Below the pieces are notes generated by a model. That model saw only the letters and a program-made list of their open reading frames with translations, was not told where the DNA came from and made no database searches. DNA of 64,000 nucleotides. Source: an uncultured virus (IMG/VR IMGVR_UViG_3300025287_000001). Lineage: Duplodnaviria; Heunggongvirae; Uroviricota; Caudoviricetes. Every line of letters starts with the position of its first letter. The stretch's first letter is position 1. A program made the position numbers and the translations under genes. The DNA is taken from the IMG/VR virus record IMGVR_UViG_3300025287_000001; one strand, 5' to 3'. Shown piece by piece: positions 5,142 through 63,567 of the stretch.

Positions 5142-6126
5142 CTCCAGAAGGCCCAGTTAAATTGGTTTCTACATCAGGCCTCAGCTTTCTCTTGTCGCAC
5201 CCACATCCAACATCATCATTTACAAATATGTTGTAGCTCTTTTTCTCTATGCCGTGCCTGCAATATACTTCGTTCGGGACTTCAAAATCAACTTCTACAT
5301 CAAAATATGTCTCTACGCGCCTATCTTCAGGTATGCTGATTTCTTCGAGTGATACTAGATTCTTATCAATCATTACATCATTGACAACATTTGTCGCTTC
5401 TTTCTCAAAGTACAACCTCTTCATGAACTCTTCGGAGCCTATCTCTTCTATTTCAAAGATCTCGATATCAAACATCTCATTCAGTATATCAACATTATCT
5501 TCTGAAGTTTCAAAAAGCAAGTACCCATTTTCTACTATTACAGTCCCGCCATCACTAAATGGAGAAAACGCATATTGAAATTCTGTAATATCGAAGCTTG
5601 ATAAATCGTCAACACCTTCTGAGAAAAAACCTCCATCCTGGGGTTCCCTGGAAACGAAGGGAGTAGTCTCTTCCTTGTTAATGGAAATAAAGAATGTTCC
5701 CAAGTCAATTTCGTAGTCCTCTTTATCTTTTTCTACCGATTCAAATTTATGGTTGTATACCCTAGAATATAGGTTACTAGCTGATTGGTTGCCTATGCCA
5801 CTATTACCAAGAGCAGACTCAATTTTGCCGAATACTTCTTCTTGATCTTCTATAGAAAGATTGTCTACATCAAGAGATTGATAATTTAAACTCTCTTCTC
5901 TTGACTTGAAAGTCACCTGCGTAGACAGCCTAGGAGTATCGTTAGTGATTCTAGACTCTGCGTCTTCTTGGTTTTCTTCTATACCCGCGTATGAGGCATC
6001 ATAAAGAATGTCATCATCAAAGAATCTATAATAAAAAGGATGCAACTTCCCCTCGGAATACAATCTTTTTCCATGAGGGGTTAGTTTTATATCAATTTCC
6101 CTTTCTTTTTTATCTAAAAAGCTCAT
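5128..6126 (-). CDS. Virion structural protein, N-terminus similar to ORF 1-688
   Basis: MSFLDKKEREIDIKLTPHGKRLYSEG..FFDDDILYD aligns by eye with MGFLDNSGDIIIDAVLTDAGRERLARG..LADDEIDY. Confidence 0.7.
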   Translation of the reverse strand: MSFLDKKEREIDIKLTPHGKRLYSEGKLHPFYYRFFDDDILYDASYAGIEENQEDAESRITNDTPRLSTQVTFKSREESLNYQSLDVDNLSIEDQEEVFGKIESALGNSGIGNQSASNLYSRVYNHKFESVEKDKEDYEIDLGTFFISINKEETTPFVSREPQDGGFFSEGVDDLSSFDITEFQYAFSPFSDGGTVIVENGYLLFETSEDNVDILNEMFDIEIFEIEEIGSEEFMKRLYFEKEATNVVNDVMIDKNLVSLEEISIPEDRRVETYFDVEVDFEVPNEVYCRHGIEKKSYNIFVNDDVGCGCDKRKLRPDVETNLTGPSGDECD

Positions 6127-12100: not shown

Positions 12101-15100
12101 TGCGATAGTTTACAGTATCATAGATTGAAAACTCTTCTGCCTCTATGTCAAGGTAGCCTCTAGACATGCTCTCGTAACCACCTGGGGATGAGAACCTTGT
12201 TACGAATATGTGCCTATTGTCCCCTCTCGGAAGCAAAGTAAACTCTGCCACGCCGTCAATGTAAGGCGACACAGATGCGGAAATGGAGAAGCCATCATTC
12301 TCGATAAAGGCACGACTATTGCCAGATCTACATGATACCTGCGCCACTTCATTGATGTACCTGTAGTTGCCCAGGAACCTAGAATCTGTACTAGTTTGAA
12401 TATTCCTTATGCTAACCGGGGACTTTACCCCCACTCCACGACTATAATAGAACTTTGCCTCATCATTCGGGACTGCTGAAATAGTATAATCGTTGGCATT
12501 TTTCGTTATATTATACAGTTCTGGCCTATCAGTTGCGACAGTAGTGCTGTCAGCCAAATCAATATTATCGAACCCACCAACCCACTGCCTAGTAAACGTA
12601 GTTTGCATGGAGTCACTGTTCGAGACAATAAATTTATTATGATATCTTCTCTCATCTAGGGTATAATCATAAGTCATCCCTAATACAGGCTGATCCTTGC
12701 TAGACCTCAGTATGACATCACCAAAGACAGCATCATCATAAACAGGTATAGATCCTAAAGGAAACTTTGACTCTAGGTCATCTTCATTGTATGGATTATC
12801 TCCGTCTATCTGTATAACTAGATCTTGCCCACTTGAGTACAGATCTCCCTTGAAATCATTCACAGTAAACTGAGACTCAGGCTTGAAAGACACGATAAGC
12901 TCTTTGCCGTTCTTATCGGAGTATAGATCCGCTATCCTTGTCAGCGAAGTAACCTGAAAGAATCTACCATCGTAGAAGGAATCTGTGACAGGATCATATA
13001 ATCTATCTGGTTCCACTACCGTGGTTTTATTAACAGAATCTTTTATTGCATCTCTACTCTCTGCGACAGGAGATCCCGAAACATCATCCAACCACCTCTT
13101 CTTGTAGTAATCCGCATGTATAGACTGATCTGTTGTTCCTTTATAATCAGGAGCGTGTCCCGTCTTCCATGGGTATTTTAATTCCTGTACTCCTCTAGTG
13201 GAGGAAGTTGCTTCAAGAATATTGATTTCATATGTAGGGAACTTGTTCCAGTACTTATTCCTCTCTAGTGCATGAGATTCGATAACATTTTTTATCGTTC
13301 TACCTGATTCGATCGTTCCCGGCAGGACTTGTTCCAGTGCACTGGATATTGCTGAGTCCACCCACTTGAAATACTCCAAGAAGAACTCTACATCAGGCTC
13401 TGACTCTAACCTCTCGAAAAATCTTTGTCTTATCTTCTCTAGAGCCTTATACTCTTGCCTATATCTTTCGACTCCTGTTATAGAGTTGGAGAAATCAGTG
13501 TAATCACTGTATAGCGACATCATCAAATCTGACACAACTCTCTGAGGACTCTTCTCGAATGTGAAATACGAACTAAGAGAATCTCTATTAACATTAAAGA
13601 ATAAATCATCGTTAGATAGAACATTAACAGTATCTGAGTAGGAAATCTCATCAGGTGATAGATTCCTTAGTGTATTGATGTATTTTACTATCTTGATCGA
13701 AGAACTACTGACGGGGAAAAATGCCCCCACTCCAGTGTGATGCCCTTGCGAATATGGGCCAAAGAAATCATACAAATCATCATTAGTGTTGAAGTCGCAA
13801 GAATAGTCCTGAACCTCAAACTCGCCTGATGAATCAGTTGAAGTAATATCCGAAAAATCCCACTCCAGAGAAAGAGTGTCCATTCTTGAAACTTCTACGT
13901 CAGAGAATGATGAAGTAGAAACAAAAGCACTCTTTTCGGGGTTGTTGATACCCCTATTCTCTACGTCTAAAAGATGCTCCAAGATCTCATCATCTTCGAG
14001 TTTCTCGTACCAGTGCCTTAGCTTGACAGGTTGCGTATCAGCATTCGTCACGAGAGTGCTGCTATCAGAATAATCTGTGTAATCAGCGCCTACGAAAAAT
14101 CTTTTAGAAGCCGATAAGAAATCAGCAGCAACAGCCGCAGATAGTGTAGAGGTTTCTCTAAACGAAAACTCAGAAGAAGCTACATCTTGACTTACTCCAT
14201 AAAACTCTACAACAAAATCATTACCAGAGAACCCATCTGGCAGGTCTCCCATCTTTGTTTGTTCAGAGTAAATTCTGAACGTAATATTCCACAGGGTATC
14301 GTTATAGACATCATTAATGTAGTCTGTAGTTAGCGTATCTGTAGTTCCTACTCCAGTGTAGTATTCTACTTTAAATCTAGCCCTTCTTCTCAGTGGATCT
14401 GAAGTATCTTTCTCTACGCTGACAACAAAAGAACCTACATCATTTACTGTCCTGCTAAGGCTAACCGAGCCTTCATGATTACCGAAAATACTCGTTTCAG
14501 TAAACGGTTTTGCATAATAATTTGGGCTTGTGACATCATACTCTTTTGGTATATGGACTATACATTCTGTAGTCTGCGGAACAAACGCAAGATCTCCACC
14601 AGAATCAGCAGGTATAGCGGTTACTGAATCTGCATCAGAAGCAATGATATCCTGATATATCGTACCAGAAGAGTTCAGTTCTGAGTTGAAGTTAATCAAA
14701 GCCTTTTTACTTAAAACATTTCTCTTCCTTGGAATTAGCTCGTATTCGCCCTCTGACCTGTAAACAGGCGTAACTATATTCTCGCTCAGGCCGAAACATC
14801 TCATTATATTTCTTACCGATTCAAGACTTCCCTTGGATTTATTAATGGAAGAGATATTGTTATAGATGTTTTGGTAAAGTACGTTCTTTACATCTTCTAT
14901 ATTGTATTTGAAATACCCGTCCTGATCTTTCGATAGTAACTCTTCTAACAAGCCCGCCTCGGAAAATAGGTCGTCTATATTGAAGCCGTGAGATTCCAAA
15001 TTGTACTTTGCGAATGCATTACTTTCGGAGAAGTCTGAGTAATACTCTTGATCTCCTTGAGAAGACAAATATTCTATCTGAAGATAAAGCCTGTCGTAAA

Positions 15101-16547
15101 ACGAACCGATTATCTGCATAAGGTTCGACATCTGGCCCTCTTTGTCTTCATCAATAATGTATGAAGGAAGCTGATCATACAACGACCTTGAGCTTGTCTG
15201 GTCATGACTTTCGGCTTCAAGAACCTTGTCAGAGTACCACTCCACAACTTCAGGGTTGGTGGTGTAAATTATAAGATCACCACGCTCATTATCTCTATCT
15301 CCCGATAAAGGACTTTCCTCTAGTGCAGAGCTACTGCTTCTCGACCCAACATAGTAATTAACAAAAGAACTCCTGTTAACGCGCCCAGAATAATCCAAGA
15401 TAGTAGCATCTCGTTCATCGGTTTCTGTATCATCAAATATGCCTTCGTTAAACTTAAGATAAACTCCCAGGTCATATCTGTACTTATCAGAATTACCACC
15501 ACCGTGGATATCCGTATTCCAGCTAAAGCCTATTTGTTCACTAGTTCTGGTCGCCTTCCAGTATCTTATCTCGTCTAGAGAACCCTCAAAAGCCGCCCAT
15601 CCCAAATCAGTAGTTGGGTATCCTTCCTTGCTAGTTTGTAAAGCCCCTATAACGCCAATGGTGTTCCCATCTGTATCTGTCATCGAAGATACGCCTGTAA
15701 ATTCATCCAAAGACTCTAAGGAGCCGTTCACGTAGGTCCTAACTAGTAAGGAATCTCCATCTTTTTCTATAGAGACTGCAAAATGGTTCCATTCGGAGAA
15801 ATCAACATCGGTTAAGGAACTCTTCAGAGGCCCTATCGCCTCATCTTGAAGGCCATCGGCCCCGGACCTATAAACGATATTAAAGAGATTTGTGTAAGTA
15901 GAGATAAATTCTAGGGAAAATCTACCGTAATCAGAAGACCCATTTGATTCTTGATTCCAGATATCAATGATGCAAGAAGAGTCTACGGCATCTAAATCCT
16001 TCGCCCAAAACTCAATAGTGTTACCAAGCTCAGGGCTCACTTGAAGATTGCTGGTCAACCCATCTTCTTCTGAATAAAAATTTGACCCGTCACGCTCGCC
16101 AGATAAAGATGGGTTTGGACCTCCCAAGACTTTTATGTATTGAACTTCGTCCTTCAACTCATAATCATGACTACCAGGGACCGTGACAGTATTTAAAACT
16201 GCGCCTATCTCTGTATTAAGATCTACACTTCCCTTGGCCCTTGGCCACTCTTTTTCTGCGATATACCTATCGTATTGGTGGCCGTTATTATACCATTCGT
16301 TTATTTCTTTATCCGAGCCATCATAAGGATACGTGTTCGATATTCTGTTGTAAGCATCTTCAACGTATTTGCTCGCCTGACCATATCTTGCAAAGTTTCT
16401 AAACTTTGAAAAATCAACAGGAGGGTCGAAAGAAGAAATCCTCTTTAAGCGTTCTTCAAGAGCGCCAGAGGATTCTATCTTTCTCTCGATATCTTCTTGT
16501 GTAGTACTACCGAGGCCTTTTTTGCTAAACAAACTTTTTATTGACAT
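6123..16547 (-). CDS. Giant baseplate/tail protein with LamG (concanavalin-A-like) domain (3474 aa)
   Basis: TIEFWAK..WNHFAVS..YVNG..FEGSLDEIRYW LamG motifs; INKSKGSLESVRNIMRCFG wedge-like motif; next to baseplate genes. Confidence 0.8.
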   Translation of the reverse strand: MSIKSLFSKKGLGSTTQEDIERKIESSGALEERLKRISSFDPPVDFSKFRNFARYGQASKYVEDAYNRISNTYPYDGSDKEINEWYNNGHQYDRYIAEKEWPRAKGSVDLNTEIGAVLNTVTVPGSHDYELKDEVQYIKVLGGPNPSLSGERDGSNFYSEEDGLTSNLQVSPELGNTIEFWAKDLDAVDSSCIIDIWNQESNGSSDYGRFSLEFISTYTNLFNIVYRSGADGLQDEAIGPLKSSLTDVDFSEWNHFAVSIEKDGDSLLVRTYVNGSLESLDEFTGVSSMTDTDGNTIGVIGALQTSKEGYPTTDLGWAAFEGSLDEIRYWKATRTSEQIGFSWNTDIHGGGNSDKYRYDLGVYLKFNEGIFDDTETDERDATILDYSGRVNRSSFVNYYVGSRSSSSALEESPLSGDRDNERGDLIIYTTNPEVVEWYSDKVLEAESHDQTSSRSLYDQLPSYIIDEDKEGQMSNLMQIIGSFYDRLYLQIEYLSSQGDQEYYSDFSESNAFAKYNLESHGFNIDDLFSEAGLLEELLSKDQDGYFKYNIEDVKNVLYQNIYNNISSINKSKGSLESVRNIMRCFGLSENIVTPVYRSEGEYELIPRKRNVLSKKALINFNSELNSSGTIYQDIIASDADSVTAIPADSGGDLAFVPQTTECIVHIPKEYDVTSPNYYAKPFTETSIFGNHEGSVSLSRTVNDVGSFVVSVEKDTSDPLRRRARFKVEYYTGVGTTDTLTTDYINDVYNDTLWNITFRIYSEQTKMGDLPDGFSGNDFVVEFYGVSQDVASSEFSFRETSTLSAAVAADFLSASKRFFVGADYTDYSDSSTLVTNADTQPVKLRHWYEKLEDDEILEHLLDVENRGINNPEKSAFVSTSSFSDVEVSRMDTLSLEWDFSDITSTDSSGEFEVQDYSCDFNTNDDLYDFFGPYSQGHHTGVGAFFPVSSSSIKIVKYINTLRNLSPDEISYSDTVNVLSNDDLFFNVNRDSLSSYFTFEKSPQRVVSDLMMSLYSDYTDFSNSITGVERYRQEYKALEKIRQRFFERLESEPDVEFFLEYFKWVDSAISSALEQVLPGTIESGRTIKNVIESHALERNKYWNKFPTYEINILEATSSTRGVQELKYPWKTGHAPDYKGTTDQSIHADYYKKRWLDDVSGSPVAESRDAIKDSVNKTTVVEPDRLYDPVTDSFYDGRFFQVTSLTRIADLYSDKNGKELIVSFKPESQFTVNDFKGDLYSSGQDLVIQIDGDNPYNEDDLESKFPLGSIPVYDDAVFGDVILRSSKDQPVLGMTYDYTLDERRYHNKFIVSNSDSMQTTFTRQWVGGFDNIDLADSTTVATDRPELYNITKNANDYTISAVPNDEAKFYYSRGVGVKSPVSIRNIQTSTDSRFLGNYRYINEVAQVSCRSGNSRAFIENDGFSISASVSPYIDGVAEFTLLPRGDNRHIFVTRFSSPGGYESMSRGYLDIEAEEFSIYDTVNYRNLQVRRAYDRYSQFSSEKIASPTGYNFNYITSDTTLGSEIAAYHKINRNRRFVAEDVSGTVQYKERLDNNFVSHAIPANPYSVYWINNGTTGSSIPEDGDVVPDLSDGTGESINVYDVNPDYKGIQYEDDTVTFYYLPNGTEVSTEDSHFAKLNGVDTDNLEYYDVTRNRYGFSSWRQLRASEHPEARDLKRFNQISLHDDDVYENRSSISYEILESESSYRLSDGYFQWLEGPVSYNDPVKISLVVPGDGLQGIEISHQSTRERFSAVTLDEALDQFTINQQTPYEAIREGYLDAELFKLHGVSRSDRVYPSRRNSGTLLARTRYFYRDEPSTTVSSNSLRLSWKEDEADRQNRDNVGWHHVEDRNDTTVISGSWTYVSPSFASDDEVVYYPSSWPTDGAFDSFVNLELDTIGLVYLGYLNGPRNDYFASKFVKLATDTDSDRIFTNFYHVYSDAVYNTGTSSVDYTLLNSATFNSYDSEDKPFYDTIEEWECDVKVKSKDYNVVPEFNISRNMSFYVQEAGGEFVARNDKFLTLQGSAVDAELESSSQGSDEDSGLEEKFFRTYAFSDLMPDAIEDMEEHLDKEPDLDLHFELDVGAIKKMIPYNGFYPVNRVSQLAEQFLSDYKPHLYNEAETDTSANFRSAQAFTQPFYAPGIALNSIKSGIAMDWATFQGRDACLEIIDSREDQASYGFYDLDNSDAVNDILFGINHCFAGTDFVAYHPGRYDVTQQDANGVDFSQDQESADRFRKYGVRYTNPGVGETGPKFFWYTKDEDGTYALKYEIDFFEDLLTETQASSFHWEFIANGMVDTSTKDENSFAFIALRRGPDSETGEDPSDPKGEFPIYIYHVWDRGDRYDFVRVNPHTLLTAGGNQTVNGSNRAECVIEYFPSRVCFGAIRDGQTVNFQSIGVNSIQTSNVLKFFIGYGVNDTAARTFDFDSLHYQIGLVPLDNEINNDNRTINHTDYIVTFDDGVTYELDHDVTIEHYDIATGMTVVYTINFPDNVGSGANFIYPGSADGSTPQELNSYGNSVCAEVLRSENLVVFPIQRDQSANDVEYYHYVLTTNIPGADINDPAGNIASFPVTPTRYSDIHQVYTYNSADNETYELVFGSSCKSEGILYYDDRVYYVDPDSVTYTSGVLTAGPTLSNVQYEADTGTGYGISATATAGPLIQNAVESRACKRLGNIDIVENTLIATFSYGDLSTFESVEPTLQRMVKQIYKIDEDAVPNFISEELIDNVFLNNSLMRDNSLRIDNPLKLSASYNEDFAINNSSFASSDIQIGKTCLEFISYEGNVNFHQPLENRGYAPYFYTQRLNVEDNNTGTSYYYQRMIDYKPNLRVPFEAILDPSLGIPITPATSAENGVSTDSKVWWLGPEYYTDQDEDYIYPYAQWTGREESPLYRLAANNFFGEAVRFFVEGSDLTTFTSMPEEKFKDVEAGKTYVMDVSLKAFNFKPVKEKVSGVVQDDNYGKFFGPPARYFKESLDCSRIEYPSGAITDNRSDFIEDPAQAPWAPPYIYGESVARIKYTPEVSGKPTLGDILSNAEIEYINKDLNEKFYDVGDGATNLSNPTSPAYEGRVRLDSCLSLLSKTKVKKVQFDTDNLTFSEENGYSYAPTSIKDSEGNDGDAWAIYPKWECPVFDIDEDTIDDDGFGMTWFNDANQLSQQSGVFMSIERTPNLDRTVEGSLIDICGFTPTSSKLGKVAGSKKIYEAVAIIPITETPNSETVYVNGFNCIPVKKDIFNKQLVNINSNRPAVTVGDFDSQVSIDSTSISNTITKMKEYVVPPFMNYVEDRSIDPFVFYIAEFSEELSKDDLSNIWLGKMPEIAKTMNIASKNISHKIDRFEFFGGIVPPKDMKFLVFKIKKKAEKSYFNLTADKSDDSRFEFEVFDNSTPSYSYNWPYDYFSLIDRVKISAGFFATGEGASEDRDVNFDEAIRIGDKVNRNSIMAKKNVLISNSINEEQIDIGDRISLESDSSEQKKRNPRVSNKK

Positions 16548-19738: not shown

Positions 19739-20103
19739 TAAACTGAAATCTCCAAGGATGCCTCTAAATCAAGAACATCTACATAATAAAAAACATTCAC
19801 CTTTAAGTTGTTTTCCAAAGTAGAGTCTCTAGAGACACTTACGTCAATAATCTCTAGAAAGTTCATGTACTTTCTTACCTGACTTATTATCCTAGATTCT
19901 ATATTGCTTATGTTTTGATCATTAGTATTCTCGAACAAATAATTCTTCAATCCTACCCCAAAATCAATATTCATAATCTTCTCCCCAGGAGAAGTGAGCA
20001 ATAGATGTTTAAGGTTTTGCTCGATGTACTCTTTATACGTTTCTATCATCCTAAAATCTGTATTATCATCTACAATAATAGGTAGTTTTACAGTTATACT
20101 CAT
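19738..20103 (-). CDS. Baseplate gp25/GpW-like protein
   Basis: IEQNLKHLLLTSPGEKIMNIDFGVGLKNYLFE signature. Confidence 0.9.
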   Translation of the reverse strand: MSITVKLPIIVDDNTDFRMIETYKEYIEQNLKHLLLTSPGEKIMNIDFGVGLKNYLFENTNDQNISNIESRIISQVRKYMNFLEIIDVSVSRDSTLENNLKVNVFYYVDVLDLEASLEISV

Positions 20104-23100
20104 AAATCACACTCCCCAGATTCAGAAAGAATATCTTTGTCCGTTTCGTTATCCTTCGAAGAATCTTTGTCTGTTCTATCTATATTCGAACCGAACAAAG
20201 CAAGATAAACAAACCCATAAGGAGTAACAGGAGGCCCTATTCCAAACGGGATAACGTTTGCAGGCAGCAAACTAAGAGAAGCCGCCAGAACTGGTATCTT
20301 CTTACCGGATATAATGTGTATCTTCGAAGCGATAGATATATTTGGGTCAGCAGACTCAACAAACCCTTTAAAGATTTGTATAGGAGCCTGGAGGGCGGCT
20401 CTTATTCCGAAACTCGTGCCGGGGAGTCCAGATACAAATAACTCGCACCTACTCTTTTTCTTCTTGAAGATGGAATTGAAAAATGCGTTCTCTATAACAC
20501 TCTTTTGCATACCGAATAAATCTTCTCTATCTTCAAAGCAATCAGGAAATACCTCGTCTCTCAAGAGATAATCTGTGCTCATGCACTTCACATGCCTTAT
20601 TATCTCCTGCCTGACAGGGAGCCACACTTCCTCCAAGCCAGTAACACTCGTTATAGTCTCTATACAGTGTATATTCAAAAAAGAAACAAGATCTTTAAAG
20701 TGCATAATATCTTCAAATAGAAATTTAACATCAGGACTTTCTGATAAGCCATTAACCAAGAAAGTCCTGATGTTATCGTCATATCCGAATATATTATTGT
20801 CTACATCGCTAACCTTCGTATTCTCGCTATACAATGTAGAGAACGGAGTCTCAAACGACGAAATAGGCACAACATACCTTTTGCCACCAGATACATCAAA
20901 CAAGCCGTATAACTTTTCTTGCTCTGACCTAGAAAAAGCCGCCTGAGTGTTCGTGAGATTATTGCTCGTCAATATACTCTCAGAAACCAATCTAATTCCT
21001 ATATTGATACTATCGAAAACATCAAGAACAGCATCGGAAAGAAATCCTCCAGACACCAAGGCCGAATTGAGTCTTTCCAGGGAAACTACACTAAGGACTC
21101 CCTTTTCTATAGCAAGAGAAGAGCACAGTTGATCATTGTCACACTTTATTCTTGCATACCTCTCTAGATACAGCCCCTGATCTGCATCTCCCTCAAAATC
21201 AAGATCAGTCCTTGCCGGGGATCTCTCGCTAAGTGAGTCAAAAATATACGGGATAAGTCTCTTCGACTCGATTAACGAATTAAATATTGAAAATATATCA
21301 GTGAGAGAAGACGTAATAATATCATCATACAGCAAAGATAGTGATTCTTCGAAGCCATTTCCATCACCCGACTTGCTTATTATTTCTTTAACAGTTTCCC
21401 TGTCTTCTCTAACATATGAGTTAATTTCTGACTTTATATTTCCAAGAATATACTTCTTCAAGAATTTATCGTTAGGATCTATAACTCCTAACGAGCCAAA
21501 GAAGAACACTGCTCTTGTAAGGTAATCAAAGAGAAATACTCTCATGTAAATTCTAGCGAAGCTGTCCTGAGTACTGTCTTTCATTATTTCTTCAGGAACC
21601 GCATTAATCTTCTGGCAGTTGGAATTAAATAACGAATCTTTTGACTTTACCTTCTCTCTACCGATTTTGAGAGGGTTGTTAGCCCCGCATGAGTTAATGC
21701 CCCTAGGGGCCAAATTGATTCCTTCTATCTCGTAGGACGAACTCGAACCCAGTAACCCCCCTTCTTCTTGCGATTCAGCGATAAGAAATCTACTTCTAAT
21801 GATATTTTCAGATACTACATCAAAAAAGTTACTGTATATCTTATCATATAAATCAGATCCAATTGCCTCTCTTATGTCAGAGGGGACTGGCTCGCTTAAC
21901 GATTTGTTGATTATAAAGGTAGCAAAAGCACTTCTTTCAATTTCACTAAACGAATCGCCAGAGTTTGATAGACTCTTTATTCTGGTAAACCTATCTCTAT
22001 TTAAGATTCTTGAGATACTACTAACACCCTTTGAGATTGAAACTCTTCCAAGTTCATCTATGTATGACAGAGACATGTTAGACGATGTTGTCTTAGTATC
22101 TCTTAACTGAGGGCCAAAAACAGCAGAGTTGATGAAATCTATATCTGAAGATTTGCCCGGAATCTCTAGTGTCTGCACAAACAGCCCAGAATCATTTTCT
22201 CCCAAATCACTGACAACAGAAGTATACTCAGGGGCTACTCTCCTGACTGGTATGTCGAGAGGGTATGTTGGAGTATCCTCTCCTTTATACGAAAGTATAT
22301 CTTCTTCCTCCACCCCGTTAGATACCAGACTCACGAGTAGTGGGTTTAAGATAGGATCATTATTATCTGTGCTTAAACCCACCTGGGTTGGTGTTACAGT
22401 CTTTGGTACTTGCCTCTTCTCTAGCGAAGGAAAAATAACAGAATCTGACCATCGAGATGCGGCAGAAGTAAACTCTTCGGATATGGAATCATACATATAC
22501 GAAATCCCGTCCATATATGACTGAAGCTCAAACTTCTTATCTTCAGTAATCTCTCCATTTTCATAGCATCTATTAAAATCTTCATTAGCGAGAGGATCTT
22601 CGAGCAACTCTTGTATAGAATCTCTTAATTCATCAATCTCTCTGTTTGATTGTTCTATCTGCCTATCTATCTCATCTTCCGGTATGTTGTACAGCCTAAG
22701 TCTATTTTTGATTAGTGCATTAAAATCGTCTTCACAATTAGGAGATTTTGGCAACAATATATCAACCGTTCGATCAGGGTTATCTATACCAACCTCATCC
22801 AGAAAATCTCTGCACTGATCAATAGCAAAATCTTTACCAAAACTATGAAAGAAATCTCTTATCTTGTCTTCGGTGTTGTAATACCTGGAGAGTAGCGGAT
22901 ACCCTTGCCTTATCTTGCTCTTTGCCGATGATAGGGTTTGGTTCCCAGCCTCTCCGTTTACCAATCTGCATATATCTATCGGAGAAAAATCATCAACCAC
23001 ATCTCCAAAAGCCCCCTTGCCCTCTTCTGTGATTTCTTCAATTATCTCGGGCGGGACTCCTTTATCTTTGGCATCATCACCAAACACAGGGAAAATAGGA

Positions 23101-26100
23101 GGAAAGAAGAATATAGGCCCTCCACCAAAACCAATCCCAAGACCGTCACATTTAATGTCGAGAGAGAAATCCAGAGCAAGCTTAATCTTTCTTTTGAATA
23201 GTTCTAGTGCAATATCAAATTGCCTCTCTAGTAAGAAAGATAAATCAACACTCTTTAAGTTTATTATAGGAAGATACGGCAAGAAAGGCATCTTGAAGTC
23301 AAAAGGTGCGCCGTTCGCTATGCCGCTAAATTTCTTTGAGACATACTCCAAGGACTCGCTAGTCATCTTGGCCCTTGATTGTATAGATTCTATAGTATCA
23401 TCAATGATATTAATCGCATCGTCAAAAGAAACATTCTCTAAATATTCCCTGGCCTCTTCTAATCCTTGCTCCAATAAGGCGATAAGCTCGTCTTTGCTTT
23501 CTTCTACCTCTCTTAGGATTTCCGTTATAACTTCGCTTATCTTGCCGGATACTTCCACCCTACACCTAGATGATGAGTCTAGAACATCGTAGTAAAGCCT
23601 TCTAAGCTCTTCATAGGTTAAAGGAGTGCCTTGCAACTTTTCCAGTAACTGCTGATAACAGGACTTTGTAAAAGTAAAAATCTCCTGCAACCTCATTTCT
23701 ATGCCAAGTAAAAACTCGAAAAAAGAGATTAAGGCTTGATTGAATCCCTCTAGAAAGAGATCAGAATAACGATCAAGAACATCTGAGGCTATTTCTATTA
23801 TATCAGAAGATATTACTCTATACCTTACAATAACTTCTTGTTCTTTCTCTAGTAATGCCTCTATAAAGTTTACTAATTCTTCGGAGAAATCAACAAAATC
23901 ATCCAACAAGTCCTTTATCTTTACGGTTGGGTTATCTCTAATATACTCTAGAATATCCTGAATAGTTTGTTCGTCTACTACTTCACTTACTACCTCTTCT
24001 GCGTCTCTTATGATATCGTCTATCTCTTCTCCGTTCGAGATAGCCTCTAATATCTTTCCCTTTACCTCCTCTGCTTTCTCAATATATGGATTTGCCACTC
24101 TATCATAAACAGTGCCTATGATAGCTTGAACAACTTCTTCAGACTCTAATACGATTTGCTTATGCTTTTCTTTTGCAATCTCTATAAAAGACTCTTTGGC
24201 ATCTTCATTAAAGATACCCCCAAGCTCAGAGATAATATCAACATAAGCCTGTTCAATTTCTTTCGCAACCGAGTCAGGGATAATACCACCCAGCCTCCTT
24301 ATCGGGGGAGGTTCTTCTCCTGATTCAACAGATTCGTAATACTCTTTGGAGTTTTCTTCTGCCTCCGAGGGCAGGTCCTGAATAGCCTCCTCGGAAGCCT
24401 CAGAGACGCCCTCAGCGATTACATCCGCCTCGCTAGATACTGACCCCTCAACAGCGCTTGAAACCTCTTGAGAGCCCTCAGATAACGTTTTAGAAGGAAT
24501 CCTGCCTAGCTCCACGCTCTTTTTAAATTCAACCAAGTGGTCGTATATTTTCTGGACTACCGCCTCGCCAGTTGTCTCTAAAACACCAGTAACCTCGTTA
24601 ATCGTATTCTGGACTTCTTCTGATTTATCGGCTGCAATCTCTATTTGGTTCTTTATTTGAGACTCTACAGAATCTATATCTTGCTCTAAACCTGAAGCCA
24701 CTTCCTGAGCATATGACACGCAAGCCTCGGAAGCTTCCTCTATAGAATTTTCAACATCTTCTCTTATTTTCTTGGATTTTCTATCAAATTTAGACAGTTT
24801 CTCCCTCAAGTCATCATATAGTCTGTTGTCTATTAAATCTCCAGCGCCTACATCAATATTATACTCACAAAGGAAAAACTCATTAAAGATAGAACCTACA
24901 TCAATCCTTAACAAATCTCCTATAGAGAGAGAATCAATTGAGGATAGGAGATCAAAGTTCTGATCATCCTCTACGATTAACTCATCCAGTTTGTTTAGAT
25001 TCTGCGGGCTCTGGAGGAGAAGGTCTCTGCTTATCTCCTTTCTCTTGGAGGATGCCGTTCTTGGTGCTTCTAGGGACCTTTCTTTCGCAATTCTAGCAAT
25101 CTCTTGATTTTCTGATCTAGACTCGCCAAAATTAACTTTTTCGCCTTCACCAAGGAACTCAAGGACTGAATCTATAGAAATCTTGGTTTCATCAATATGA
25201 GAAATCTTTCTTAAATTCCTGATAATGTTAACAGATTTGGGATTATTATACTTTGAATCTAGAATTATCTCTATATCGGATTCCAAGGGAAAATATCCCC
25301 TTCCATCTTTCACGAGGGATATGTACCGAATTTTTTCTGAATTTACATAAACACTCAACAAATCAGAATCTTTAAAATTATCTTCTATAAACTCTGAAAA
25401 TGTCTTCAAGAACTCGATCCTAGAATCAAACAAGTTGCTATTAAATCTAGTCGATTTTTTGCTTGATGATCTAAAGAATGAAATCTTTCTACGAGATTTT
25501 TCGAGATGCTTTCTCACCTCCCTCAAGCTAAAACTATGCTTTTCCAGGCTTCTATATTCCGAGGGAAGACTCTTGTAAGATATCTTGTCGCCATCCTCAA
25601 AAACATCATGTTTGAAGTCAACAAGATATCTTATTGATTTCGGAAACTTCACCAGCGAAACTGAAGATCCGCCAGAATCAGGGAATATCTTGTATCTATC
25701 GACGTAAAACAGAGACTTTAGTGATTCGTTTTCTTCGAACATATTCGCAGAGAATCTTTCCAATACCCTGCTCTTTGCTTCTTCTCTAATGAAAGAAAGT
25801 TCTTCTTCTAGCGTTATATCGTTGCTCATTCTTGGGCGAAATTGGATGAAATAATCATAAAAATCATCACCCTCAAGCACAGTCCCGTCCTTCAAGAACT
25901 GCCATCCCGGCCCTAACAAAGATAGGTCTCGTCCTTCGCTTAACGGAAATTTTTCAAGCTCAACCTCATCAAAAGTAACAACTCCATTTTCTTGCCTCGA
26001 AGCGGAAATAAGATCCGGTTGAGACATTCTCAGGAATCTTTTGTAGTTCCTAGAATCACTCTCGCCAGATTCACGAATCGCAATTTCATCCAAGAATACC

Positions 26101-26162
26101 TTCTTAATGTTTTCATATCGTGAATCTGAGAAAATGTTATTTGTCTTTATCTCAATTGACAT
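20100..26162 (-). CDS. Large acidic, helical virion-associated protein (2020 aa)
   Basis: Long ORF between spike and gp25; E/D-rich heptad-like centre; hydrophobic P/G-rich C-terminal segment. Confidence 0.65.
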   Translation of the reverse strand: MSIEIKTNNIFSDSRYENIKKVFLDEIAIRESGESDSRNYKRFLRMSQPDLISASRQENGVVTFDEVELEKFPLSEGRDLSLLGPGWQFLKDGTVLEGDDFYDYFIQFRPRMSNDITLEEELSFIREEAKSRVLERFSANMFEENESLKSLFYVDRYKIFPDSGGSSVSLVKFPKSIRYLVDFKHDVFEDGDKISYKSLPSEYRSLEKHSFSLREVRKHLEKSRRKISFFRSSSKKSTRFNSNLFDSRIEFLKTFSEFIEDNFKDSDLLSVYVNSEKIRYISLVKDGRGYFPLESDIEIILDSKYNNPKSVNIIRNLRKISHIDETKISIDSVLEFLGEGEKVNFGESRSENQEIARIAKERSLEAPRTASSKRKEISRDLLLQSPQNLNKLDELIVEDDQNFDLLSSIDSLSIGDLLRIDVGSIFNEFFLCEYNIDVGAGDLIDNRLYDDLREKLSKFDRKSKKIREDVENSIEEASEACVSYAQEVASGLEQDIDSVESQIKNQIEIAADKSEEVQNTINEVTGVLETTGEAVVQKIYDHLVEFKKSVELGRIPSKTLSEGSQEVSSAVEGSVSSEADVIAEGVSEASEEAIQDLPSEAEENSKEYYESVESGEEPPPIRRLGGIIPDSVAKEIEQAYVDIISELGGIFNEDAKESFIEIAKEKHKQIVLESEEVVQAIIGTVYDRVANPYIEKAEEVKGKILEAISNGEEIDDIIRDAEEVVSEVVDEQTIQDILEYIRDNPTVKIKDLLDDFVDFSEELVNFIEALLEKEQEVIVRYRVISSDIIEIASDVLDRYSDLFLEGFNQALISFFEFLLGIEMRLQEIFTFTKSCYQQLLEKLQGTPLTYEELRRLYYDVLDSSSRCRVEVSGKISEVITEILREVEESKDELIALLEQGLEEAREYLENVSFDDAINIIDDTIESIQSRAKMTSESLEYVSKKFSGIANGAPFDFKMPFLPYLPIINLKSVDLSFLLERQFDIALELFKRKIKLALDFSLDIKCDGLGIGFGGGPIFFFPPIFPVFGDDAKDKGVPPEIIEEITEEGKGAFGDVVDDFSPIDICRLVNGEAGNQTLSSAKSKIRQGYPLLSRYYNTEDKIRDFFHSFGKDFAIDQCRDFLDEVGIDNPDRTVDILLPKSPNCEDDFNALIKNRLRLYNIPEDEIDRQIEQSNREIDELRDSIQELLEDPLANEDFNRCYENGEITEDKKFELQSYMDGISYMYDSISEEFTSAASRWSDSVIFPSLEKRQVPKTVTPTQVGLSTDNNDPILNPLLVSLVSNGVEEEDILSYKGEDTPTYPLDIPVRRVAPEYTSVVSDLGENDSGLFVQTLEIPGKSSDIDFINSAVFGPQLRDTKTTSSNMSLSYIDELGRVSISKGVSSISRILNRDRFTRIKSLSNSGDSFSEIERSAFATFIINKSLSEPVPSDIREAIGSDLYDKIYSNFFDVVSENIIRSRFLIAESQEEGGLLGSSSSYEIEGINLAPRGINSCGANNPLKIGREKVKSKDSLFNSNCQKINAVPEEIMKDSTQDSFARIYMRVFLFDYLTRAVFFFGSLGVIDPNDKFLKKYILGNIKSEINSYVREDRETVKEIISKSGDGNGFEESLSLLYDDIITSSLTDIFSIFNSLIESKRLIPYIFDSLSERSPARTDLDFEGDADQGLYLERYARIKCDNDQLCSSLAIEKGVLSVVSLERLNSALVSGGFLSDAVLDVFDSINIGIRLVSESILTSNNLTNTQAAFSRSEQEKLYGLFDVSGGKRYVVPISSFETPFSTLYSENTKVSDVDNNIFGYDDNIRTFLVNGLSESPDVKFLFEDIMHFKDLVSFLNIHCIETITSVTGLEEVWLPVRQEIIRHVKCMSTDYLLRDEVFPDCFEDREDLFGMQKSVIENAFFNSIFKKKKSRCELFVSGLPGTSFGIRAALQAPIQIFKGFVESADPNISIASKIHIISGKKIPVLAASLSLLPANVIPFGIGPPVTPYGFVYLALFGSNIDRTDKDSSKDNETDKDILSESGECDL

Positions 26163-41885: not shown

Positions 41886-42497
41886 ATGAAAAAACATGTG
41901 AAAAGAACCGAAGAAAACACAAATCAGGTTCAAGATAGTTGTTGGGGCGCGTTCCTCGATAGCCTTCTTTCCAGAGAAACCACGCTCTTTATGGAACAAG
42001 AGAAGGCTGAGATACAAGAGATGATAGCTTCCGGGGCTCTGGATGACCCGGACAAATTCATTTCTTACGCTTACTCTGTTATAAATAGGCGAAAAAGACG
42101 AATGGGCCTTACACTTGAGAAGCATTTAGAGTTTTTATTCAAGCTTGCTGGACTGGATTACACTTATCAGGATGAAGTAGGGCATCATGTTGTAGATTTT
42201 ACATTCCCGTCTTCGGCAAGCATTAGAGATGGAAAGCCTTATTACTATATGCTGAGTGTTAAGTCTACTTGCAACGATAGATGGAGAACGGCAACCAATG
42301 AGGCTACAGAATGTCAAAACAGGTATTTCTTTACTCTGGATGACAACATCCCTGTTAAATACACAGAGGAGATGCGCGATATCGGGTACACGATAGTGGC
42401 CCCGGAAAGCAATTTGGAGGCGTTGTCGGGGAGCGCCACAGAGGTTATAGGACTCTCTGAGTTTATCCGTAGGGTAAGGGAGGATTTTTCAGACTAA
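41886..42497 (+). CDS. EcoRII C-terminal-like type II restriction endonuclease domain
   Basis: NRRKRRMGLTLEKHL..DFTFPS..LSVKSTCNDRWR resembles the EcoRII catalytic RxxRxG..D..KxxxxxRW pattern. Confidence 0.8.
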   Translation: MKKHVKRTEENTNQVQDSCWGAFLDSLLSRETTLFMEQEKAEIQEMIASGALDDPDKFISYAYSVINRRKRRMGLTLEKHLEFLFKLAGLDYTYQDEVGHHVVDFTFPSSASIRDGKPYYYMLSVKSTCNDRWRTATNEATECQNRYFFTLDDNIPVKYTEEMRDIGYTIVAPESNLEALSGSATEVIGLSEFIRRVREDFSD

Positions 42498-61115: not shown

Positions 61116-61139
61116 TGACCTTTGACGAGAGAAGAGAAC

Positions 61140-61523
61140 ATGAAATTAAAACTTTCGTACATTGCTTTTGATGGTAGGGGCAACGCATTCCTCTTCAGGG
61201 AATATAGAGGCACCATCGTTAGAACTGGTTGGTTCCCAGCCTTGTTTGATAAGGAAGGTGAGTATCTGGGGATCATCTGGTTGCCTGACCATAAGGGCAA
61301 ACAAAAGCCAATGACTTCGAGTCAGCTTGTGAACATGCTGGCTAACTCTTACCCGAGTGAGTCAAAGGCAAGTGCAGGTTACATAAGAAACGACCCTGAC
61401 TTTGAAAACAATGAGGTCTTCTCCAGAACGAGGATGTACCTTACAAAGGATGATGGATGGCATATCGTTCCTTCTATCGAGAAAGATGGTAAGTCGTATC
61501 TCCTAACAGAGCTTTGGTCGTAA
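61140..61523 (+). CDS. Hypothetical protein
   Basis: ATG 61140; open frame between tRNA genes. Confidence 0.65.
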   Translation: MKLKLSYIAFDGRGNAFLFREYRGTIVRTGWFPALFDKEGEYLGIIWLPDHKGKQKPMTSSQLVNMLANSYPSESKASAGYIRNDPDFENNEVFSRTRMYLTKDDGWHIVPSIEKDGKSYLLTELWS

Positions 61524-61524
61524 C

Positions 61525-61707
61525 ATGAAAATCTTCAAGATTCTCAAGCGATGGACGTGCCGCCATGAATGGGAAACCAAATACGAAAACCACAACGAAA
61601 CTGTTGATTCTGAGTATACTATTAAGGAATGCCCGAAGTGTAACACGAGAGTACATAAGTGCCGGATAGGTGAGTATTACTTTAAAACCTGTAAGGTCAC
61701 GAGATAA
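61525..61707 (+). CDS. Small zinc-binding protein
   Basis: CRHEW..ECPKC. Confidence 0.65.
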   Translation: MKIFKILKRWTCRHEWETKYENHNETVDSEYTIKECPKCNTRVHKCRIGEYYFKTCKVTR

Positions 61708-61803
61708 GGCAAACCCAAAACGTGCTTCCTCTAAAGCCTTTACAATACTATAAGGGGGAGTCAAACAAGCACCCTTAGCTCAGTTGGATAGAGCAACGGT
61801 CTT

Positions 61804-62415
61804 TAAGTAAATGGAGCCTTCTGTGTGGAAGATCGAGAAGATTGTCAGCAAGGGTGATTATGACTATGCAATAGTCAGAGATCATCCAAACAGAACTAAG
61901 AATGATTATGTCTTACACCATCGTGTGGTCGTAGAAAATCATCTTGGTCGCCTTCTCGAATCAAGCGAAGTTGTCCACCATATTGACGGGAACAAGAAGA
62001 ACAACCTGCTCTCAAATCTTGAAGTCATGTCAGTTAGCGAACATGCTAGACATCATGGCCAAGAGATATCAAGGAAGTATGTTGACCTTAAGTGTCCTGA
62101 GTGTGGTAAGGAGTTTATTAGAGAAAAGAATCAGACACATCTTCAAAAAGGGACAAGTTACACTGCTTGCTCTAGAAGTTGTTCCGGTAAATTCTCTAGC
62201 AAAGTCAGGCTAAAGCGCTTATCAACCGCAGAAGTGGAAGCGGCTATATCGGGGAACATCGTAAGAGAATACGACAAGTAGTCTCACGACAATCCCGAGG
62301 TAACTGACGACAATCAGGAACCGTAGAGGCCATACGCCGCTCACCTGAAATGGTGAAGAGATGGTCCAGCCAGCAAGCCTTTGATAAGGTGGTCATGGAA
62401 ACATGATGCTGGATG
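61804..62415 (+). mobile_element. Group I self-splicing intron carrying a homing endonuclease
   Basis: 5' exon ends in U paired to G in P1; P3 GCGGC/GCCGC; P4 TCGGG/CCCGA; P7 GGCCA/TGGTC; P8 TCACC/GGTGA; S-like AAGAGATGGTCC; P9 hairpins; terminal G at 62415. Confidence 0.9.
61811..62281 (+). CDS. Intron-encoded HNH homing endonuclease with C-terminal zinc finger
   Basis: YVLHHRVV..VVHHIDGNKKNNLLSNLEVM..HARHH; CPECGKEF..CSRSC. Confidence 0.9.
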   Translation: MEPSVWKIEKIVSKGDYDYAIVRDHPNRTKNDYVLHHRVVVENHLGRLLESSEVVHHIDGNKKNNLLSNLEVMSVSEHARHHGQEISRKYVDLKCPECGKEFIREKNQTHLQKGTSYTACSRSCSGKFSSKVRLKRLSTAEVEAAISGNIVREYDK

Positions 62416-62456
62416 CTAAACCGTGGGTCGTAGGTTCGAATCCTACAGGGTGCGCT

Positions 62457-62593
62457 TGCTGGTTAGTTTGGAGCTATAGGTTTCTAGAGCCTATACGTTA
62501 CGAGGACAAAAAGGCGAGTGGATTAATTACCCGAGTGCCGAAAAACGCTGTCACTATAAGGCAGAGACGATGGTTCGAATCCATCACCAGCAG
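62457..62593 (+). ncRNA. tRNA-like RNA with ~70-nt structured D-loop
   Basis: TGCTGGT/ACCAGCA acceptor; GTTT/AAAC D stem; CTGTC-ACTATAA-GGCAG; GATGG-TTCGAAT-CCATC. Confidence 0.7.
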
Positions 62594-62595
62594 TT

Positions 62596-62748
62596 GTGAG
62601 CATGTACAAAGCATGGGATTTTAAGTCTATATCAGTAGACTTATGCCAAAACATGGCGATCACAAAAAGTACCAGATCATGATACCCAGTAAGCCTCGTA
62701 GCATTGGATGCGACGGCAAGCTAAGGTGAAAGATGGTCACATGCTCGC
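62596..62748 (+). ncRNA. Candidate multi-branch structured RNA
   Basis: Closing stem GTGAGCATGT/ACATGCTCGC; inner TAAGTCTA/TAGACTTA, GCCA/TGGC, TGGG/CCCA. Confidence 0.55.
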
Positions 62749-62880: not shown

Positions 62881-63567
62881 ATGAAAGCCAAACAACTCTT
62901 TTCTGAACTTCGCTCTATCATGATGAAAGAGGTCAATGATAGGGAGGATATCATTCTCTTGGCGAGGGGACGCAAGCAACTCTTCAGGCAAACCCCAGAA
63001 TATGACTACTACATGAAAGATGTGCCCGGCGTCTTTCTCGATGTCGAGGTGGGAACTGAAGACTGGGGCCTTTGCGAACTCGTCATCACCAACGAGAACG
63101 GTGTCCTTCACTACAACGTGAGGCTTGGAGGCGATGATAAATGGTCCACTAGCACAGAAGTCAAGGAGCTTCCTATTAACAGGATGTGCTTATGGGAGGA
63201 CTTCTGGGAGGTGGCGAAATTCTGGCTTATGGGACCAGAAGAGATCGAATCTTACAACCAAGAGGATATCACTCGCCTAGATCTAGACCTCAAGCATGTT
63301 GAGGATGATTACTGGGAACCATACCCTGGCGAACTTTGCTATGACTACGACCATGGCAAAAGGAAAAAGACATACTACTACTTTACTCATACCAAATTCC
63401 CTTATGAGTACAATAAGAAGTTCTCCCACTTTATGAACGTCTGCACTGCTATCTTTATGCATAACGAAGCAAGCTATGTCTACGAGGTGGATGATTACCA
63501 CCCTGCTTACGAGGCCAGATACAATACACACCCTGCTGACAAGGCTGTGCTTCACAGCGAGCAATGA
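62881..63567 (+). CDS. Cassette hypothetical protein (228 aa)
   Basis: GAGGAG SD after promoter 62827. Confidence 0.75.
   Translation: MKAKQLFSELRSIMMKEVNDREDIILLARGRKQLFRQTPEYDYYMKDVPGVFLDVEVGTEDWGLCELVITNENGVLHYNVRLGGDDKWSTSTEVKELPINRMCLWEDFWEVAKFWLMGPEEIESYNQEDITRLDLDLKHVEDDYWEPYPGELCYDYDHGKRKKTYYYFTHTKFPYEYNKKFSHFMNVCTAIFMHNEASYVYEVDDYHPAYEARYNTHPADKAVLHSEQ

Follow-up and report, generated by a model that had tools for sequence, protein, structure and literature searches.

A putative bacterial-type group I intron with an HNH nuclease gene in its P2 loop divides a phage tRNA-Arg(UCU) gene

A split tRNA-Arg(UCU) gene in a Caudoviricetes genome

The 64,000-nucleotide (nt) stretch of DNA analyzed here, hereafter called the window, derives from an uncultured Caudoviricetes virus (IMG/VR record IMGVR_UViG_3300025287_000001) and includes a gene for tRNA-Arg(UCU) whose two halves are separated by 612 nt. 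Very probably, a bacterial-type group I intron resides between U34 and C35 of this phage tRNA, carries a gene of the HNH_3 homing-endonuclease family inserted in its P2 loop, and is spliced out to give a functional tRNA. This interpretation is essentially the one offered in an earlier note on the same DNA, and overall it is supported by the analyses described below.

Excision of 61804-62415 leaves a canonical tRNA-Arg(UCU), divided between U34 (61803) and C35 (62416), and ARAGORN identifies the script-joined exons as tRNA-Arg(tct), in keeping with the earlier note's claim that a complete tRNA forms once the insert is removed. The claimed insertion after U34 likewise stands, since no other excision leaves the 7-nt loop CU-UCU-AA together with a U before the 5′ cut (position -1) and a G before the 3′ cut, the terminal G of the intron. 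The exon elements are those of an ordinary tRNA (Table 1), and the 3′ exon does not encode the CCA end. The split tRNA-Arg gene is confirmed as a real observation, far beyond chance.

Neither default ARAGORN nor the Rfam tRNA model detects the split gene. Three further tRNAs of the window appear in the output of both: Leu-taa (57137), Ile-tat (60894) and Met-cat (61043). When introns are permitted, ARAGORN finds the gene at 61769-62455 with an intron of 612 nt and wrongly phases it as Ser(gct). The suspicion that tRNA scanners could miss this gene was thus well founded. In 20 long open reading frames (ORFs) of the window (13,038 codons), AGA (341) and AGG (251) account for 592 of 669 arginine codons (88%), and therefore the split tRNA reads the main arginine codons of the phage. 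In the same ORFs, ATA makes up 44% of isoleucine codons and TTA 20% of leucine codons, while the window encodes tRNA-Arg(UCU), tRNA-Ile(UAU) and tRNA-Leu(UAA); codon use leans toward codons that are read by the phage's own tRNAs.

Comparative evidence for the ribozyme

Related introns were collected from viral contigs by several routes. A search with the HNH protein yielded 30 loci, nine of which have full-length relatives (50-59% identity). Seven of these nine (L001-L007) share the layout of the window: one half of a tRNA-Arg, a short leader, the HNH gene, about 135 nt of conserved RNA, and the other tRNA-Arg half. A 17-nt motif of this conserved RNA, the R box, occurs at 69 viral loci, 34 of which pass the split-tRNA test, and intron-permitting ARAGORN adds split loci L053, L078 and L084 (all Arg) as well as L074 and L098. 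The joined exons form a tRNA in every one of the 28 related split loci tested with ARAGORN, specifically Arg(tct) in 26 and Lys(ttt) in two, and the same split gene is present in at least 30 viral contigs. When 61700-62650 was compared by blastn with 50,697 phage records, the sole match was a 40-nt part of the 3′ exon, which aligned with tRNA-Arg from an Aeromonas phage.

From these loci, 21 introns that are distinct in sequence served as the comparison set. Their last ~200 nt were aligned (alignment A2), and a structure comprising P3, P4, P5, P6/P6a, P7, P8, P9 and P9b was tested for covariation on 20 distinct rows, 42 pairs and 836 cells. Standard pairs occupy 98.0% of the cells, compared with 32.5-42.4% when the 3′ partners are slid by one to three columns. 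Compensatory changes on both sides occur in 22 of the 42 pairs (133 cells), and none of 500 shuffles matches the observed percentage paired, number of pairs changed, number of cells changed or covariation score. RNAalifold, to which no structure was supplied, recovers P3, P4, P5, P6, P6a, P8, P9, P9a and P9b, and does not recover the pseudoknotted P7.

The core helices P3 through P9 lie in canonical order with the P3/P7 pseudoknot. All of the elements named in the earlier note (P1, P3, P4, P7, P8, P9 and the terminal G) can be located, along with P2, P5 and P6, and those from P2 through P9 are backed by covariation. P2, at which the MAFFT alignment is out of register by 1 nt, was counted with a custom script; 164 of 168 cells are paired, and seven of eight positions show more than one standard pair type. 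The three exon pairs of P1 and the +1 pair (U.G in 18, C-G in three) are present in all 21 introns, as are the U at -1, the U.G wobble at the splice site and the terminal (omega) G. The Rfam group I model (Intron_gpI, RF00028) aligns with 62215-62420 and places P3, P4, P5, P6, P7 and P8 where the comparative structure has them.

Two other segments were considered as guide sequences and ruled out by covariation in the homologs: GAGGCC at 62326-62331 is part of P7, and the conserved CCGAGG belongs to P4′/P6.

Table 1. The split tRNA gene, the intron with its predicted helices, and the intron-encoded ORF (window positions).
Feature	Position	Strand	Description	Basis
5′ exon of tRNA-Arg(UCU)	61769-61803	+	acceptor 5′ strand GCACCCT; D arm with A20; anticodon-stem 5′ strand ACGGT; C32 U33 U34 (CUU)	sequence reading; ARAGORN on joined exons
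Group I intron	61804-62415	+	612 nt	sequence, Rfam alignment, comparative helices
P1 hairpin	61801-61816	+	C61801-G61816, U61802-A61815, U61803.G61814 (splice-site wobble), U61804.G61813, A61805-U61812	
P2 5′ strand	61819-61827	+	UUCUGUG[U]G, U61826 bulged; 8-bp helix	comparative
HNH_3 homing-endonuclease ORF	61823-62281	+	152 aa from GTG 61823; stop TAG 62279-62281	Pfam, PHROG
P2 3′ strand	62226-62233	+	CCGCAGAA; within ORF	comparative
P3 5′ strand	62239-62244	+	AGCGGC, partner 62336-62341; within ORF	100% of cells paired; both-side changes in 4/6 pairs
P4	62249-62298	+	62249-62254 with 62293-62298; encloses P5	covariation, RNAalifold
P5	inside P4	+	62259-62262 with 62286-62289	covariation, RNAalifold
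P5a	inside P4	+	62265-62268 with 62282-62285; ORF stop in its loop	window sequence alone
P6	62299-62322	+	GGU 62299-62301 with ACC 62320-62322	P6/P6a: 99.1% of cells paired, 3 pairs changed on both sides
P6a	within 62299-62322	+	CUGA 62304-62307 with UCAG 62314-62317	covariation, RNAalifold
P7 (R and S boxes)	62328-62366	+	GGCCAU 62328-62333 with AUGGUC 62361-62366	covariation, Rfam alignment
P3 3′ strand	62336-62341	+		covariation, Rfam alignment
P8	within 62328-62366	+	CACC 62342-62345 with GGUG 62352-62355	covariation, Rfam alignment
P9	62370-62412	+	62370-62375 with 62407-62412	covariation, RNAalifold
P9a	within 62370-62412	+	62378-62381 with 62386-62389	RNAalifold
P9b	within 62370-62412	+	62393-62397 with 62402-62406; GAAA loop 62398-62401	covariation, RNAalifold
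Terminal (omega) G	62415	+		invariant column in 21/21 sequences
3′ exon of tRNA-Arg(UCU)	62416-62454	+	C35 U36 A37 A38 (CUAA); anticodon-stem 3′ strand ACCGU; variable loop of 5 nt; T arm GTAGG/CCTAC; acceptor 3′ strand AGGGTGC; discriminator G	sequence reading; ARAGORN on joined exons

Some relatives reside in other tRNAs. The closest ribozyme relative of the window intron (76% identity; viral contigs L039 and L068) sits at position 34/35 of a tRNA that ARAGORN calls Lys(ttt), and its HNH frame breaks off after 25 aa. The alternatives are transfer of the intron from one tRNA to another and a C-to-U change at position 35. Viral contigs L074 and L098 have the same R box in an intron of ~773 nt (ARAGORN phasing) within yet another tRNA, for which the best phasing is Thr(tgt) interrupted after U34, with an odd C33.

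Bacterial relatives of the phage intron

A scan of bacterial genomes with the R box returned at least 120 loci. Among the matches listed, 72 have an S box and 47 show a divided tRNA; an Arg(tct) gene interrupted at 34/35 is compatible with 21, and others fit Leu(taa) or CAU tRNAs, with the phasing obtained by brute force and ambiguous in part. A profile built from the 21 viral ribozymes (A2) matches all 21 Arg(tct)-compatible bacterial loci among those listed (nhmmer, E 2e-17 to 3e-33), and its matches to ORF-less loci run full length. The short, ORF-less bacterial introns begin with GGAGCC, continue with a plain local P2 hairpin, and then have the same P3/P4 string as the phage introns. The insert is a bona fide group I intron and belongs to the bacterial lineage of tRNA introns.

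The long bacterial introns carry a PDDEXK_5 gene (PF11645; E 1e-32 to 4e-41) that ends at P7 and therefore lies in P6. Examples of such tRNA-Arg(UCU) introns are found in genome contigs L165 (781-1203), L148 (787-1203) and L133 (787-1203). A relative of the phage HNH gene was sought by tblastn in the 72 listed bacterial intron loci and was found in none. The PDDEXK_5 gene represents a second entry of a nuclease gene into this intron family, independent of the first.

The earlier note listed Leu(UAA), fMet, Ile(CAU) and Arg(CCU) as the bacterial tRNAs known to hold group I introns. That list is incomplete in omitting Arg(UCU): the available text of Flood et al. 2016 (PMC4853749), citing MacGregor et al. 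2013, mentions putative tRNA-Arg(UCU) group I introns in Beggiatoaceae, and the 21 bacterial loci described above add to these. Williams 2020 (bioRxiv 10.1101/2020.01.27.920355) increases the number of known bacterial tRNA intron settings to 21, up from 4; the genomes treated there are bacterial and archaeal, and a term search of the text gives no mention of phage. In the nomenclature of Williams, the setting described here would be written Arg.3Ug.

An HNH gene wired into the ribozyme

The intron ORF matches Pfam HNH_3 (PF13392) over residues 36-80 with 49.2 bits (E 4e-13; cut-off 24.8) and PHROG HNH endonuclease families with a best E of 5.4e-23. These matches, together with the comparative helices, bear out the earlier description of the insert as an HNH-bearing group I intron. 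The sequence GGAG (61813-61816) serves at once as the P1 guide and as the sole Shine-Dalgarno-like (SD) sequence of the ORF. In 17 of 21 homologs, the start codon directly precedes a conserved TGG and lies 5-6 nt after GGAG, and therefore the start codon in the window is likely GTG 61823. A longer in-frame alternative begins at ATG 61811 (156 aa, 61811-62281) and has no SD.

The ORF occupies the P2 loop and overlaps the ribozyme core, a location on which the earlier note is silent. Specifically, GTG 61823 sits within the 5′ strand of P2, and the final 56 nt of the ORF encode P2′, P3, J3/4, P4 and P5, such that the TAG stop falls in the P5a loop. In relatives, the HNH frame extends 66-168 nt beyond the start of P3 and, in some, as far as P8. 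The P3-P4 string GCTATATCGGNGAA is kept in all 21 introns and even in the ORF-less bacterial relatives, and therefore the C-terminal peptide of the HNH protein is dictated by the RNA. Folding of the ribozyme would hide both the SD and the start codon, and a translating ribosome would unfold P2′ through P5.

Sixteen of the 21 distinct introns have a full-length HNH ORF. In the other five (L039, L048, L052, L067 and L079) it is frameshifted, truncated or deleted, and L079 (240 nt) and L048 (305 nt) retain both ORF ends, which are the P2 strands, and the entire core.

Relatives of the HNH protein also occur outside introns. Viral contigs L008 and L009 encode a free-standing relative with 50% identity (1404-2043), 22 nt after an intact tRNA-Arg(tct) and followed directly by tRNA-Met; the anticodon stem of this tRNA-Arg differs from those of the intron-bearing alleles, and the ribozyme is absent. 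Similarly, Aeromonas phage P19 has a relative with 36% identity in a tRNA cluster. In a tblastn search, the HNH protein has no relative above 60% identity over the aligned portion; among the matches listed, the highest identity is 54.8% over 40% of the query, and the top-ranked match (H2) has 40.2% over 77%. No split tRNA was present at the three matches inspected (H3, H4 and H27). The free-standing HNH relatives fit the view that such nucleases, when they target a gene, move at a later time into the intron of that gene.

Transcript and allele evidence

Parts of the stretch are present in 20 sequencing runs, all labelled marine metagenome, of which four are RNA libraries. Three RNA runs (X14, X15 and X17) and one DNA run (X6) were examined for contigs from the locus. 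RNA run X15 holds one contig of 175 nt (depth 2.6, no mismatches) in which 61783-61803 is joined exactly to 62416-62569, so that it continues into 115 nt of downstream sequence specific to the phage. We regard this contig as a hint of splicing in nature rather than as proof, because just 21 nt lie on its 5′ side. Runs X14 and X17 hold no junction contig, a matter of cover rather than evidence of absence. Unspliced or intron sequence is also present in RNA-library contigs (61689-61839, 61850-62021, 62108-62328 and 62165-62342), and DNA run X6 has the intron-containing form across both splice sites.

Intron-less copies of the gene were sought by way of the downstream flank of the phage. All five metagenome loci with this flank carry the intron and are identical over the 730 nt compared, and no intron-less copy is found among them. 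Viral contigs contain no relatives of the proteins encoded on either side (61122-61520 and 62881-63564), and therefore a syntenic intron-less allele could not be sought through them.

Proposed mechanism

The analyses above show the anatomy, the covariation, the homology with bacterial tRNA-Arg introns and the intactness of the ORF, and from them we infer a series of steps that extend to catalysis, translational coupling and the target of the nuclease. After transcription of the tRNA cluster, P1 would form by pairing of the exon end CUU with the guide GAG of GGAG, with U61803.G61814 at the splice site. The P3-P9 core would then fold, and an external guanosine would attack the 5′ splice site. 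The freed exon would in turn attack after G62415, such that the ligated exons become a normal tRNA-Arg(UCU) reading AGA and AGG. On any one RNA molecule, the splicing fold and translation of the HNH gene should be mutually exclusive, because the SD is the P1 guide, the GTG lies in the P2 5′ strand, and the last 56 nt of the ORF form P2′, P3, P4 and P5. The HNH enzyme would be expected to cleave or nick those tRNA-Arg(UCU) genes of co-infecting phages that lack the intron, into which the intron would be copied by homing. The intact ORF of 16 of the 21 introns speaks indirectly for such cleavage.

Contrary evidence and rival explanations

Several observations weigh against this interpretation. 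On its 206-nt segment, the Rfam Intron_gpI model scores 27.3 bits (E 2e-5), which is below the curated gathering score of 50, and the model goes unreported when 1151 nt are searched (E up to 10) or when the whole window is searched at the gathering threshold. In the covariation test, 82 of 500 shuffles reach the observed value of a fifth measure (further pair types). P1, at 4-5 bp, is short, invariant and without covariation support; because its pairs never vary, it is identified by presence and position only. The 5′ side of the junction contig, at 21 nt, falls below the 31-nt bridging rule, this contig comes from one of three RNA runs, and RNA libraries can contain DNA. DNA run X6 also holds a joined contig of a diverged intron-less tRNA, which has 6 differences in 67 nt. 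Finally, the ORF has decayed in 5 of 21 relatives, and therefore nuclease activity is not guaranteed here. With regard to the Rfam score, the Intron_gpI seed is described in the available part of Williams 2020 (bioRxiv 10.1101/2020.01.27.920355) as lacking bacterial sequences, and a cut-off of 18-20 bits is given there for matches inside split tRNAs.

Carry-over into the RNA library of DNA from this phage, in the form of an allele without the intron, could also account for the junction contig. DNA may be present in such libraries, the depth of the contig is just 2.6 and its 5′ side just 21 nt, and unspliced pieces occur in the same libraries. We nevertheless consider this origin unlikely, since an intron-less copy with the flanks of the phage is seen neither in DNA run X6 nor at any of the five metagenome loci, which are identical over 730 nt upstream.

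Splicing could also be real and yet depend on a host chaperone or on the intron's own protein acting as a maturase. The very short P1, an ORF of 400 nt that opens P2 and is threaded through P2′-P5 (to P8 in relatives), and the protein dependence of several group I introns (CYT-18, CYT-19; available text of Hausner et al. 2014, PMC3984707) all speak for such assistance. Set against this are the ORF-deleted introns L079 and L048 and the ORF-less bacterial relatives, which keep the same core without the protein. In addition, the classical tRNA introns of this lineage reportedly self-splice, a point that rests on the title of Zaug 1993. On balance we regard protein-assisted splicing as quite improbable.

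A different role for the nuclease can be imagined, to which we assign only a slim chance. If the HNH enzyme were to cut all intron-less tRNA-Arg(UCU) genes in the infected cell, that of the host and those of competing phages alike, while the phage copy is shielded by its intron, then the system might act as a takeover or exclusion device. The infected cell would depend on the spliced phage tRNA for AGA and AGG, which are 88% of phage arginine codons, and the free-standing relatives beside an intact, diverged tRNA-Arg (L008 and L009) would represent an unshielded form of the same weapon.

Finally, it is very improbable that the ribozyme is a splicing-dead relic and the tRNA-Arg gene a pseudogene broken by a selfish element. 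This reading draws on the degenerate ORF of five of 21 relatives and on the sub-threshold Rfam score. Against it, no core helix of the window intron is broken, pairing persists in 98% of the pair cells of the family, joining the exons still produces a canonical tRNA, AGA and AGG make up 88% of arginine codons in the long ORFs, and an RNA-library contig has the exact exon junction. The reading that we prefer remains that of a spliced bacterial-type intron with an HNH gene in P2.

Implications

Standard tRNA finders miss or misname this gene, and therefore tRNA inventories of large phages, and the codon-usage arguments built on them, are biased. The intron family also provides a natural series for how homing-endonuclease genes enter introns, in which one ribozyme at one tRNA site is seen in five states: in bacteria without an ORF, again in bacteria with a PD-(D/E)XK gene in P6, in phages with an HNH gene in P2, with remnants of an HNH gene in decay, and with a free-standing HNH gene beside an intact tRNA-Arg. 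Moreover, the placement of the SD in P1 and the start codon in P2 offers a compact and testable case of competition between splicing and translation.

Genomic context

The window has 41% G+C and encodes a baseplate-wedge-like protein, PhoH, an exonuclease, a tRNA cluster and many ORFs without a family match. Two ORFs are giant, at 3474 aa (6123-16547, minus strand) and 2020 aa (20100-26162, minus strand), and a 203-aa ORF (41886-42497, plus strand) has the EcoRII C-terminal domain of a restriction endonuclease (E 2.4e-30). Most other large ORFs of the window match neither Pfam nor PHROG. In a metagenome contig of 630,638 bp, the locus occurs three times (L101-L103), about 185.1 kb apart and with identical flanks, a spacing that points to a concatemer of a phage genome of ~185 kb.

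Directly after the tRNA-Arg gene lies a tRNA-like element of 139 nt (62456-62594, plus strand). It has an acceptor (TGCTGGT/ACCAGCA), a T arm (GATGG-TTCGAAT-CCATC) and an anticodon-like arm (CUGUC-ACUAUAA-GGCAG, with C at position 33), while about 67 extra nt forming two hairpins take the place of the D arm. The Rfam tRNA model gives a partial match (16.9 bits), the fold z-score is -2.05, and intron-permitting ARAGORN yields a poor, forced assignment as Arg(tct), with an intron of 50 nt. The X15 junction contig covers the element to 62569, and its 3′ end has no exact match in viral contigs.

Comparison with known systems

A literature search found no published description of a group I intron in a phage tRNA gene. 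In its available text, Hausner et al. 2014 (PMC3984707) places all phage introns known to that date in protein-coding genes, in agreement with the earlier note's statement that this is their typical location, and the intron described here counters the generalization. A "tRNA-Stop interrupted by 2.5 kb" in phage pVa5 is flagged as a possible artefact by its authors in the part of their article that treats it (PMC5746245). No published account was found of such an intron residing in a tRNA gene of a phage, of an HNH gene within P2, or of two different nuclease genes in two loops of one ribozyme family, and these features appear to be undescribed. The earlier note had called an HNH-bearing intron in a phage Arg(UCU) tRNA unusual. 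This holds for the phage host and the HNH gene in P2, and is too strong for the tRNA and the insertion site, which are not new because bacterial homologs (E to 3e-33) have the same 34/35 split.

Among phage elements, T4 SegB is described in the available text of PMC2330249 as a free-standing homing endonuclease in a tRNA cluster. The window HNH relatives of L008, L009 and phage P19 are similarly free-standing in tRNA clusters; SegB differs in being a GIY-YIG enzyme, and is not located in an intron. The introns of I-HmuI (PDB 1u3e) and I-PfoP3I share with the window intron a phage host and an HNH nuclease gene, and differ in that they interrupt protein-coding genes. The I-PfoP3I intron is described as IA2 in the accessible text of PMC3428280, unlike the window ribozyme, which groups with bacterial tRNA introns. 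The window HNH protein matches 1u3e weakly in sequence (E 0.29).

Bacterial tRNA introns provide the nearer parallels. A tRNA-fMet intron of Synechocystis reportedly has an endonuclease, and like the window intron it is an anticodon-loop group I intron with a homing endonuclease aimed at the anticodon region. It differs in its tRNA, position and bacterial host, and its endonuclease is reportedly of the PD-(D/E)XK family rather than HNH. Bacterial tRNA-Leu(UAA) introns, compared by position, share the insertion site: their 5′ exon likewise ends in CUU, and U34 and nucleotide 35 lie on either side of the intron. The 17-nt R box used here also retrieves Leu(taa)-compatible split tRNAs from bacterial genomes. 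These introns interrupt a different tRNA and normally have no ORF.

The bacterial tRNA-Arg(UCU) introns share the most with the phage intron: the same tRNA, the same split (CUU/...g/CUAA), the GGAGCC guide, P2 right after the guide, the P3-J3/4-P4 string, the R and S boxes, and P9. Whereas the bacterial introns are either ORF-less (about 205-350 nt) or carry a PDDEXK_5 gene in P6, the intron of the window is found in a phage and bears an HNH_3 gene in the loop of P2.

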